DNA of 64,000 nucleotides, taken from assembly GCF_044324875.1 (NCBI RefSeq), contig NZ_CP172185.1. One strand, given 5' to 3'. The stretch comes from Escherichia coli. GTDB taxonomy: Bacteria > Pseudomonadota > Gammaproteobacteria > Enterobacterales > Enterobacteriaceae. Numbering within the stretch: the first letter of the stretch is position 1; each line of letters opens with the position of its first letter. Below are positions 9,400 to 12,300 of this stretch, piece after piece. The position numbers were made by a program.

Positions 9400-12300
9400 A
9401 GGAAGCCTGGCCCTTACATACCCCGTTTGTGATTGCTCGGGGAAGTCGCAGTGAAGCGCGCGTGGTGGTGGTTGAACTGGAAGAAGAAGGTATTAAAGGC
9501 ACCGGTGAATGCACGCCGTATCCGCGTTATGGAGAAAGTGATGCCTCGGTAATGGCGCAAATTATGAGCGTCGTGCCGCAATTAGAGAAAGGGCTGACAC
9601 GGGAGGAGTTGCAAAAAATTCTCCCTGCCGGTGCAGCACGTAATGCGCTGGATTGTGCATTGTGGGATCTGGCGGCGCGAAAACAGCAGCAATCGCTGGC
9701 TGATTTGATCGGCATAACGCTTCCCGGGACAGTCACCACGGCACAGACGATAGTCATCGGTATGCCTGATCAGATGGCCAATAGTGCATCAACACTCTGG
9801 CAGGCAGGCGCGAAATTACTGAAAATAAAGCTGGATAACCATCTTATCAGTGAGCGGATGGTGGCAATTCGCACAGCTGTGCCCGATGCGACGCTGATCG
9901 TTGATGCAAATGAATCCTGGCGTGCAGAAGGGTTGGCGGCGCGTTGCCAGCTATTGGCGGATTTAGGCGTTGCGATGCTTGAACAACCGCTTCCTGCGCA
10001 GGACGATGCGGCGCTGGAGAATTTTATTCATCCGTTACCGATTTGTGCTGATGAAAGTTGTCATACTCGTAGCAATCTGAAGGCGCTGAAAGGGCGCTAT
10101 GAGATGGTTAACATTAAGCTCGATAAAACGGGTGGCCTGACGGAAGCGCTGGCGCTGGCGACTGAAGCACGTGCACAAGGTTTTAGTCTGATGCTGGGCT
10201 GCATGTTGTGTACCTCTCGTGCCATTAGCGCCGCTTTACCGCTGGTGCCGCAGGTCAGTTTCGCCGATCTTGACGGACCGACCTGGCTGGCGGTAGATGT
10301 GGAACCGGCGCTTCAGTTTACAACGGGCGAATTGCATCTTTAGGATGCCAGCGCAGCAAGTTTGCCATCGCAAAGAGATATTTTTCGCTGGCTTCGTCGG
10401 AGGAGATGGGCGGAAACTCTGCGGTTATGCAATGCAGGTTGAGATCCGCACACCAACTACCGAAAGAGCCAGGTGTTTCATAACCGACGCTGGTTACCAG
10501 AGGCAATTCAAACGCCTGGGCCAGCCATTCGCCTAATTCACTGTGTCTGGGATCTTCAATACAGGCCAGCGGATCGTGGAATGAGACCACCCAGGCGGGT
10601 TGAATGCGGTGTATAAGCTGGCACAGCGCCTGGGTTTCAGGTTCGGAGCCAGGTTTGTCACCTGTCAGCAATACGACATCACGTTCTTCAGCGGCGCTGT
10701 TCCAGCGATAAACGGTTTCACCTTCCTTCCAGTTTGCCGCCGGAAAGTTTCTGTTTAAATCCACACCATTAGCATTGGCCCTTAACCCCAACTGGCAGCC
10801 GTCAGGATTCACACACAGCACCACATGATGACGGCGCAAAGAAGGTGTCAACGTCCGCAGAGCACAGGAGAGCGTGACGATCGAAGAGTTTTCATCACCG
10901 TGAGTGCCAGCCAGAATCAAACCACTTTCGCGGCTGGCTGCAGGGGCAGGAAACCAGATTAACGGCGCGCCCAATAATGAACGTCCGTAATGTTCTGTTC
11001 CGGGCGGAAATGCGCCGCGTTCGGCGCGTGGGCGAGTTACGGTCATGATCGTCTCTGGTTCAGGAAGTATTACAGGCAGTGTTGTGCAAATTTTGCGGAT
11101 TATCAAATCCTTTTCTTCAACGCTATGTCATCGATCTTGTATCACTTTTTTGCCGGAAGTTGTTTGCATTTTCATTGATGTGCAGATATTAGAATTGTCG
11201 TAATGTTATATACATGGCGTATTTTATTCTTACTGGTTCTACACATATTAATCGCATCTGATTGATCAGTTCACCTTAATAAGTTTAATAAATCGTACTG
11301 CACATAGTACAGTACGATGGTGGCTATATAATTGATTTACATGAAGAATGGCTTATCACCATCAGTCCCGGGTTGATTGATGCCTATATTCTCACCAATG
11401 TGTTTCTCAGGTTTATCGATGATATCTGTAATTAATGCTGCGACACTCTTACGTGATACGATCGTACCTTTGAATGGTTCATTGCGTGAGGTAAGCTCAT
11501 AATCAATAATATCTTCATCGGTCAGCCAGGCAGGGCGAAGAATTGTATATTCCAGTCCAGAAGCCTCAATTGCATCCGCAGCCCTGCGGAATGGTTTTAG
11601 GGGTTCACCAATAACTGCATTATTCCATTCGCCAAATTTTCCTGGAACTTCATCATAAATACCGAGGGAAAGAACAAAGATCAGACGTTTAACATCACAG
11701 GCTTTCATCGCAGCGATCACTGAATTTGCCTGAATATCTAAATCTTCCCCCGTAAGGTTGGCATACACAACATCCTGTCCCTGCATGGCCTGCTTCAGTG
11801 CTGCATGATTCAGTACATCCCCCATAATAATCTTGCTATTAGTGGGATAGGGTTTGTGGATTTTTGCTGGCTGACGGGCAAATAAAGTTTGTTTAATGGT
11901 TTGTTTATCTGCCAGTTGATTAATCACATGGCGGGCTATCTGACCGCCAGCACCAAGAATCAGTACATTTTTCATGAAACTTTTCCCAGATTATTGGCAG
12001 CAATATGCCAGGCCATATCACTATTACGGATTTGAATATGTTTCATTACAGAGTTTCCTCAAAGAACGGCGCTAATACTGAAATTGCTTCAGCCACATAG
12101 ACTTTGCCGTCATAAAGATCCATATGGTTTGCGCCTTCAACAATGTGATAGCGTTTATCCTGGCTTGATGCTCGATCGTACAGGTCGTCACTCATCCATT
12201 TGCTCCCTGCCTGGCTGCCCGCCACAATCTGTATCGGCTGAGTCAGGTACACTTCCGCCATATGGTAAGCATCATAGGTAATAATCTGGTTAAGGCTGCG

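Follow-up and report, generated by a model that had tools for sequence, protein, structure and literature searches.

An apparently functional full-length ymjC gene, its conserved four-gene unit, and the decay of that unit in Escherichia coli

The PgrR (YcjZ) regulon of Escherichia coli K-12 was reportedly described by Shimada, Yamazaki and Ishihama in 2013 (Genes Cells 18:123; cited in PMC6448482). In K-12, the operon ycjY-ymjDC-mpaA belongs to this regulon, with mpaA as its last gene, and ycjG is also among the PgrR targets (PMC5934670). Between mpaA and ycjY, strain MG1655 carries only ymjC (b4525, 60 aa) and ymjD (b4673, 21 aa), both of which are already labelled as remnants, and pangenome work on E. 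coli treats ymjC as variable, calling it a ‘putative oxidoreductase’ gene (PMC9602453). A Rossmann-fold NAD(P)-binding family protein of Shigella flexneri was solved by structural genomics (PDB 3QVO, 2011), and apart from it the closest solved homologue of the protein studied here is an SDR of Veillonella parvula (3R6D, 4HNG/4HNH, 4IPT). A literature search on 3QVO, 3R6D and 4IPT returned irrelevant matches only, and no functional paper on 3QVO was found. The characterised proteins of this fold closest to the gene studied here are human BLVRB (biliverdin IXbeta reductase / flavin reductase, 1HDO) and ChuY of E. coli O157 (anaerobilin reductase, 5FFQ/5GUY).

We analyzed a stretch of 64,000 nucleotides from E. 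coli (contig NZ_CP172185.1), hereafter the window, in which an initial annotation had proposed an uninterrupted ymjC-type oxidoreductase gene. The ORF listing bears this out: the gene is a single ORF of 212 aa with an ATG start and zero internal stops, and its strand, which had not been given, is minus. The protein matches PF13460 (NAD_binding_10) over residues 8-189, covering profile positions 1-184 of 184, with 184.1 bits and an E-value of 3e-54; since the curated cut-off of this profile is 27.2 bits, the ORF is far beyond what chance would produce. Of the two domain families considered at the outset, it is thus PF13460 that is matched at full length, and NmrA only in part. The N-terminal Rossmann motif noticed earlier can be read directly as the glycine-rich stretch G8-A-G-G11-Q-I-A14, a GxxGxxG/A dinucleotide-binding loop in which G8, A9, G11 and Q12 are invariant among 18 homologues, and the fold matches those of 3QVO and BLVRB. 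In genomes identical at the locus, the same protein is annotated as RefSeq WP_000800177.1, ‘SDR family oxidoreductase’. Taken with the comparisons below, we consider it highly probable that the ORF is an apparently functional, full-length ymjC that ends a conserved four-gene unit and belongs to a decay series within E. coli. The gene itself is already known, as it is annotated in thousands of genomes and its structure has been solved. Features of the locus are collected in Table 1.

Table 1. Positions of the features discussed, numbered from the first letter of the window.
Feature	Position	Strand	Details and evidence
mpaA, murein tripeptide amidase, downstream neighbour of the SDR gene	10318..11046	(-)	ORF, RefSeq
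Segment deleted in K-12 and B strains	11177..11836		660 bp; SDR codons 47-212 and 160 bp downstream; BLAST vs K-12
Hairpin, candidate terminator or attenuator	11292..11318	(-)	12-bp stem, 3-nt loop, then TTATTAAACTTATT; RNA fold; ~20 nt after the SDR stop
Full-length counterpart of K-12 ymjC, 212-aa atypical SDR / NAD(P)H-binding oxidoreductase gene	11337..11975	(-)	ORF, PF13460, 3QVO, RefSeq
ymjD-type mini-ORF, 24 codons	11972..12046	(-)	MKHIQIRNSDMAWHIAANNLGKVS; scar of deleted hydB
ycjY (hydA), alpha/beta-hydrolase	12046..12966	(-)	306 aa by RefSeq start, open frame to 12978; ORF, Pfam, RefSeq
ycjY / pgrR divergent control region	12967..13103		pgrR hexamers TAGACC-18-TATCAT at 13041-13070; promoter scan
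pgrR (ycjZ), LysR-type regulator, frameshifted	13104..14003	(+)	A8 run is A7 at 13867-13873

When the window was aligned with K-12 by BLAST, the flanks were 97.9-98.9% identical and were separated by one 660-bp gap in K-12, with the junction GCATTTT/ATTAGT. The K-12 remnant occupies the same chromosomal position and is colinear with the window gene, making the two orthologues, and no intact K-12 copy exists at the locus. As a consequence of the deletion, YmjC consists of residues 1-46 of the window SDR followed by 14 unrelated codons, KMQTTSGKKVIQDR. The earlier view of ymjC and ymjD as K-12 pseudogene fragments therefore holds insofar as K-12 has remnants only, but ymjD is no piece of the oxidoreductase. 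The first 18 aa of the ymjD-type ORF match the N-terminus of a frameshifted O157 hydrolase, and its sequence identifies ymjD as what is left of the N-terminal end of hydB, a second gene for an alpha/beta-hydrolase, which was removed by a separate deletion of ~0.9 kb. This scar, with the same junction, is present in both K-12 and the window, whereas codons 47-212 and the downstream hairpin are lost in K-12 and the window retains the whole gene. Thus, ymjC and ymjD are scars of two different genes, left by two successive deletions.

Outside E. coli, a LysR gene next to a hydrolase-hydrolase-SDR unit was found in Klebsiella/Salmonella, Citrobacter, Serratia, Pseudomonas and Stenotrophomonas, in unrelated neighbourhoods, and in Burkholderia the unit is rearranged and has no adjacent LysR gene. 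The order of the unit is a divergent LysR regulator (PgrR/YcjZ), the paralogous alpha/beta-hydrolases hydA (YcjY) and hydB, and the reductase last. Orthology of all four genes between E. coli and the Klebsiella and Serratia cassettes is reflected in protein identities of 79-93%; hydA is 91-93% identical to ycjY, which lies directly upstream of the SDR side in the same orientation, and the regulators are 86% identical to the window pgrR. The cassette often resides on a plasmid, ICE or island, as in an ICE-like region of P. aeruginosa, an island of C. koseri and a conjugative IncF plasmid of K. variicola, and it is often extended with further reductases (a classical SDR, an OYE flavoenzyme, flavodoxin-like proteins). 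The proposal that the oxidoreductase forms a small catabolic module with ycjY and ycjZ is hence borne out as a unit conserved across genera, but the module is incomplete in the window, where pgrR is frameshifted and hydB is absent between hydA and the SDR gene except for the 24-codon scar, the hydB deletion being common to the window and K-12. The word ‘catabolic’ remains a guess. As a mobile and widely conserved set of a regulator, two hydrolases and a reductase, the unit would make a sensible, if unremarkable, subject for functional annotation.

Within E. coli, we counted the coding part of the K-12-deleted segment (window positions 11337-11836) in complete genomes and found it kept in 2926 of 5426 (54%) and missing from 46%, and hydB was present in 1283 of the 5426 (24%). 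The intact SDR gene is therefore the majority and ordinary state, and the K-12 state is derived and found in the smaller share of genomes. Because about half of E. coli carry the intact form and the structure has been solved, the window gene is real but ordinary. The locus shows three types of decay. In a first type, all genes are still there with hydB damaged: it is present but frameshifted in O157:H7, and E. coli W has a nonsense codon in it. A second type, represented by the window and also by ST131, has hydB reduced to the ymjD scar and the reductase intact. In the third, that of K-12 and B, the identical hydB scar is combined with the 660-bp loss of the reductase, and since the scar is common to both, this type derives from the second. 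Truncated SDR alleles also occur in several other E. coli lineages (the allele clusters P0041, with 332 member sequences, and P0042, with 388), and E. coli can clearly do without the gene.

We next considered what the protein may do. It is 99% identical to 3QVO over 212 residues, with 3 substitutions, and is effectively the same protein. An AF2 model (pLDDT 83) superposed on 3QVO at a TM of 0.86-0.93, and its structural matches were, in order, 3QVO, the Veillonella SDR (3R6D/4HNH), and then human BLVRB and E. coli ChuY. The Veillonella protein (E 1e-19, 29% identity) shares a C-terminal PGT..DKP.F tail with the window SDR and has a Tyr where the latter has Pro125. No classical YxxxK was found between strand 4 and helix 5, which places the window SDR in the ‘atypical’ class; Y107 does have a Lys after it, K113, but the spacing is wrong and this Lys varies among the 18 homologues. 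BLVRB, ChuY and the window SDR share the PF13460 class and a compact, single-domain atypical-SDR fold of ~205-215 aa with a glycine-rich NADPH loop and without the classical Tyr-Lys pair, at an identity to the window SDR of only 19-20%. In a hand alignment to BLVRB, useful as a lead only, Ser111 of BLVRB presumably corresponds to S103 and His153 presumably to Trp150. Compared with BLVRB and ChuY, the window SDR lies next to hydrolases and a LysR regulator and not among haem-utilisation genes.

From these likenesses, we infer that the window SDR is an NADPH-dependent reductase of the biliverdin-IXbeta-reductase type. It would bind NADPH via the glycine-rich loop and an invariant Arg34 after strand 2, and would pass hydride from NADPH to a small electrophile, for example a quinone, a flavin or an enone; alternatively, the substrate could be a carbonyl that the adjacent hydrolases produce or use up. 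Because the canonical YxxxK is missing, with Pro125 in place of the Veillonella Tyr, we assume catalysis from the analogy to BLVRB and ChuY, in which hydride transfer likewise proceeds without a Tyr-x3-Lys pair.

A non-enzymatic role, in which the protein would be an NmrA-like NAD(P)(H)-sensing regulator of PgrR or another factor, is brought to mind by this missing YxxxK, by a Pfam match to NmrA and by the name of 3QVO, ‘NmrA family protein’. We nevertheless rejected membership in the NmrA-like family (PF05368), as the match (E 1.3e-10) covers only the shared Rossmann half, with residues 2-100 of a 212-aa protein aligned to positions 3-104 of a 298-position profile. In addition, the closest characterised structural relatives, BLVRB and ChuY, are true reductases, and the SDR gene is the terminal gene of reductase-rich enzyme operons, making a sensor function most improbable. 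Almost as hard to sustain is a role in recycling murein peptides, with the SDR acting together with MpaA, YcjG and MppA on peptidoglycan-derived peptides. The position of the E. coli gene between mpaA/ycjG and mppA suits such a role, as do the name of the regulator (PgrR, peptidoglycan recycling regulator), the K-12 targets of PgrR, ycjY-ymjDC-mpaA and ycjG (PMC5934670), and the filamentation caused by over-expression of ycjY (PMC3614548). However, in Klebsiella/Salmonella, Citrobacter, Serratia, Pseudomonas and Stenotrophomonas and on the Klebsiella plasmid the unit has no mpaA, ycjG or mppA nearby and is surrounded instead by other reductases or mobile-element genes, and 46% of E. coli genomes do without the reductase. 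To our knowledge, moreover, no step in the breakdown of murein tripeptide needs an NAD(P)H reductase, which we count against this role.

It is also conceivable, though on balance we find it unlikely, that the ORF is open yet functionally dead, a neutral relic before its loss. The reasoning is that the partner hydB has been deleted and the regulator frameshifted in the window, and both the reductase and hydB have been disrupted repeatedly and independently in E. coli, which fits with it. Several observations speak against this reading. The dN/dS between the window and O157 alleles was 0.09, a small sample of 9 synonymous and 3 non-synonymous changes that argues for continued constraint, and between genera it was 0.04-0.05; these ratios point to purifying selection on the SDR gene. 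Likewise, distant lineages, ST131 among them, have preserved an identical protein, and the window SDR has every one of the ~85 residues that do not vary among 18 homologues with identities as low as 66%. Finally, loss of the repressor would increase expression instead of silencing it, and the pgrR frameshift itself may be a homopolymer or assembly error: the 1-nt deletion brings a stop at 13877, giving 257 aa versus 299, and the A7 allele has an exact match in only 49 of 5232 genomes.

Other readings of the neighbouring genes were rejected. That ycjY is a hydA/hydB recombinant does not agree with its colinearity and high identity to hydA throughout, compared with ~40% to hydB, or with the separate hydB stub. 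UilS, an N-acyl-homoserine lactonase (NF047920), was examined because it is the best NCBIfam match of YcjY and hydB; at 69-87 bits versus a cut-off of 400, only a distant alpha/beta-hydrolase kinship is indicated. An Rfam scan of positions 10000-15000 on both strands gave nothing credible, with RAGATH-10 inside pgrR at 24 bits versus 41 (E 0.26).

The window and the K-12 PgrR system agree in the divergent regulator gene, in the control region and in the promoter hexamers, and these pgrR hexamers are also given in PMC3946193. They differ in that pgrR is frameshifted in the window and that its operon has a full reductase and a hairpin ahead of mpaA. As judged from the arrangement of the genes, the SDR gene would be transcribed from the ycjY promoter, which is under PgrR control, and the 24 codons of the ymjD remnant would couple its translation to that of ycjY. 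The ATG of the remnant overlaps with the stop codon of ycjY (TAATG), as does its TGA with the ATG of the SDR gene (ATGA). The hairpin, which lies inside the K-12 deletion, folds at -22.1 kcal/mol (z -3.2), and 0 of 200 shuffles folded as well. A simple terminator scan of the region did not call it, because its tail has only 4 T in 8, and it was retained purely as a candidate terminator or attenuator on account of its fold statistics. E. coli without the K-12 deletion, about half of the species and including ST131 and O157, keep both the reductase and this hairpin.

This arrangement raises the tentative and, in our estimation, doubtful idea that pgrR and the divergent ycjY-hydB-SDR genes constitute a mobile detoxification or catabolic cassette unrelated to murein, and that the K-12 coupling to mpaA is partly a by-product of the deletion. 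If so, the 660-bp loss would have removed the 3' end of the reductase and the hairpin, fusing the K-12 cassette transcript to mpaA, and in the 54% of E. coli retaining the SDR gene, mpaA would for the most part escape coupling to PgrR. Regulatory conclusions drawn in K-12, with PgrR acting over ycjY-ymjDC-mpaA, may not transfer to the half or so of E. coli, ST131 and O157 among them, in which the reductase and the hairpin are still present.

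An intact ymjC-type oxidoreductase gene had been proposed at this locus, in place of the fragments known from K-12, and both parts of that proposal were upheld. At this position the ORF listing contains a single unbroken frame of 212 aa, starting with ATG, in the E. coli gene order tyrR-tpx-ycjG-mpaA-ORF-ycjY-ycjZ(pgrR)-mppA, where ycjZ is the gene since renamed PgrR. MG1655 holds ymjC (b4525, 60 aa) and ymjD (b4673, 21 aa) in the same interval, and pairwise BLAST revealed a 660-bp gap in K-12 flanked by sequence of 97.9-98.9% identity to the window, with at most 1 base of microhomology at the junction. 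Lost with this deletion are codons 47-212 of the gene (hereafter the SDR gene) and 160 bp downstream; YmjC keeps the first 46 residues of the window protein and ends in 14 unrelated ones.

Coordinates of the features discussed (window unless another locus is named)
Feature	Locus	Position	Strand
Segment missing from K-12	window	11177-11836	
Hairpin	window	11292-11318	-
SDR gene	window	11337..11975	-
Region compared for the MRNI addition	window	11960-12000	
Region compared for the MRNI addition	O157:H7 (L003)	3861-3930	
Region compared for the MRNI addition	E. coli W (L017)	2980-3050	
ymjD-type scar	window	11972-12046	-
hydB, frameshifted	O157:H7 (L003)	3897-4827	
hydB, nonsense codon	E. coli W (L017)	3012-3960	
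pgrR promoter hexamers	window	13041-13070	
pgrR	window	13104-14003	+
A7 run in pgrR	window	13867-13873	
Intergenic stretch facing the O157 QueH fragment	window	~14100-14175	

The N-terminal Rossmann motif reported in the initial annotation was also recovered: a glycine-rich loop, G8-A-G-G11-Q-I-A14, can be read in the sequence, and residues 8-189 match the Pfam profile PF13460 (NAD_binding_10, 'NAD(P)H-binding') from end to end (profile 1-184 of 184; score 184 bits, cut-off 27.2 bits). The ORF is a real gene, and a chance open frame is ruled out. Full membership of the NmrA family was rejected, as the NmrA match spans profile positions 3-104 of 298 only. Structure comparison with the AlphaFold model (pLDDT 83) ranked PDB 3QVO first ('Structure of a Rossmann-fold NAD(P)-binding family protein from Shigella flexneri'), the chain of which is 99% identical to the SDR protein with 3 substitutions. 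It was followed by an uncharacterised SDR from Veillonella parvula (3R6D/4HNH; 29% identity), human biliverdin IXbeta reductase / flavin reductase (1HDO; 19-20% identity) and the anaerobilin reductase ChuY (5FFQ). Because the classical YxxxK is absent from the protein and Pro125 aligns with the Veillonella Tyr, we assign it to the atypical, BVR-B-like class of SDRs.

The assumption that ymjC and ymjD are pieces of one oxidoreductase had to be abandoned, since ymjD derives from a separate gene, hydB, encoding a second alpha/beta hydrolase beside YcjY (hydA). Between ycjY and the SDR gene, O157:H7 has one more gene, with the annotation 'alpha/beta hydrolase, frameshifted', and ~0.9 kb of this hydB is absent from both K-12 and the window. 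YmjD (MKHIQIRNSDM.WHIAAN...) fuses hydrolase residues 1-18 to a few codons of the hydB 3' end; in the window this scar takes the form of a mini-ORF of 24 codons. Because the scar junction is identical in K-12 and the window, the K-12 state arose from the window state through a second deletion. Where E. coli retains hydB the gene is damaged too, and independently: in O157 by a frameshift, in E. coli W by a nonsense codon (TGG to TAG) close to the N-terminus, with a RefSeq product shortened to 296 aa. At its two ends the scar shares bases with the neighbouring genes, its ATG with the ycjY stop (TAATG) and its TGA with the SDR start (ATGA), which would allow translation to be coupled through it. 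The O157 and W alleles of the SDR gene have 12 additional nt (ATGAGAAATATT, encoding MRNI) before the MKNV start, which are absent from the window and K-12; the resulting 216-aa form occurs in large database clusters.

Among 5426 complete E. coli genomes, the reductase segment lost by K-12 was found in 2926 (54%) and hydB in 1283 (24%), which by subtraction puts the window haplotype (hydB deleted, reductase intact) at ~30% and the K-12 haplotype at 46%. ST131 has the window haplotype and the identical protein (WP_000800177.1), as does an O169:H41 strain with 100% identity over the query. In a pangenome study, ymjC figures as a variable gene for a 'putative oxidoreductase', with a prevalence that varies by phylogroup (PMC9602453). 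The intact SDR gene is already known and common; what is mildly new is that two deletions, one after the other, left ymjC and ymjD as scars in an apparently mobile four-gene cassette.

Conserved synteny, together with orthology of every part in other genera, supports the suggestion that the gene belongs with ycjY and ycjZ. A divergent LysR gene precedes hydrolase-hydrolase-SDR-classical SDR-OYE in Klebsiella aerogenes/Salmonella contigs, and the same five-gene operon occurs in two contexts in Citrobacter koseri, one of them by island (integration) genes. Serratia marcescens has LysR with hydrolase-hydrolase-SDR, and P. aeruginosa has LysR with hydrolase-hydrolase-SDR-flavodoxin-like, adjoining type IV secretion genes. 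A long reductase-rich operon in Stenotrophomonas starts with LysR and hydrolase-CMD-hydrolase-SDR-SDR, and Burkholderia has both hydrolases, the SDR, two classical SDRs and an OYE within 6 kb. The four-gene unit is also found on the conjugative IncF plasmid pKGB1a of Klebsiella variicola, and in Mesorhizobium the SDR alone adjoins a Tn3 transposase/resolvase pair. Identity to the Klebsiella/Serratia cassette is 86% for PgrR and the cassette LysR regulator, 91-93% for YcjY and hydA, 83-89% for the O157 hydrolase pseudogene and hydB, and 79-83% for the SDR. With type IV secretion, island integration or Tn3 genes as neighbours, or an IncF plasmid as carrier, the cassette is apparently horizontally mobile. 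Low G+C (43% in the SDR gene; 39-44% in the window profile of the region) fits a foreign origin in E. coli.

By analogy with BLVRB and ChuY, the SDR protein is most likely an NADPH-dependent reductase, which would reduce a small electrophilic substrate by hydride transfer, with no catalytic Tyr/Lys pair. It would share one pathway with the two hydrolases and, in fuller cassettes, work beside classical SDR, OYE and flavodoxin-like reductases. Such a set of genes suggests cleavage of an ester or lactone combined with carbonyl, enone or quinone reduction, by which a xenobiotic or a compound from plants would be detoxified or catabolised. A murein-recycling role, to which the E. coli neighbourhood would point, is less likely: mpaA, ycjG and mppA occur in none of the cassette contexts listed for other genera, so the unit is self-contained and apparently mobile, and its place among murein-peptide genes in E. 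coli is happenstance.

An NmrA-like sensor is also less likely than the reductase, the NmrA match, like those to Epimerase and 3Beta_HSD, being weaker, partial and confined to the Rossmann half. So is a functionally dead relic. Disrupted alleles are on record in the protein database, one of 162 aa beginning at Met51 (a cluster with 332 member sequences) and one of 171 aa with a C-terminal frameshift (388 member sequences). Homologues at E <= 1e-10 number 4745, with orthologues at 79-84% identity in Klebsiella, Citrobacter, Enterobacter, Raoultella, Kluyvera and Serratia and at 66-71% in Burkholderia, Stenotrophomonas, Pseudomonas, Delftia, Achromobacter, Halomonas and Mesorhizobium. The ~85 residues invariant among 18 of these homologues, including the dinucleotide loop, Arg34 after strand 2, YANLTG, W117-N118, R130-R131, RPAW and the C-terminal GDKP.FM, are all kept in the window protein. 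Comparison with the O157 allele gives a dN/dS of 0.09, from a small sample of 9 synonymous and 3 non-synonymous differences; with the orthologues of Klebsiella, Serratia and Citrobacter it is 0.04-0.05. Where intact, the gene is under constraint.

The targets listed for PgrR in K-12 studies include ycjY-ymjDC-mpaA and ycjG (PMC5934670), and the reported pgrR promoter hexamers (PMC3946193) are present in the window. In the window, an A8 run of pgrR has lost 1 nt, which shortens the product from 299 to 257 aa. Of 5232 E. coli genomes, only 49, dispersed among unrelated strains, match this A7 allele exactly; it may be a rare slip mutation or an assembly error in the homopolymer. A strong hairpin of 12 bp (-22.1 kcal/mol, z -3.2), followed by a T-rich stretch, lies about 20 nt beyond the stop codon of the SDR gene. 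It was not called by a simple consensus terminator scan; it is a candidate terminator that would part the cassette from mpaA where the SDR gene is intact. Since the hairpin sits inside the segment deleted from K-12, operon continuity into mpaA in that strain may be due to the 660-bp deletion. Operon and regulon statements on mpaA derived from K-12 may fail in strains keeping the SDR gene intact, a mildly new angle. Further along, the RefSeq annotation of O157 and E. coli W has a QueH (epoxyqueuosine reductase) pseudogene, an internal fragment of 75-93 bp; window-O157 alignment places its site at about 14100, in the pgrR-mppA intergenic region, where G+C is 36-40%.
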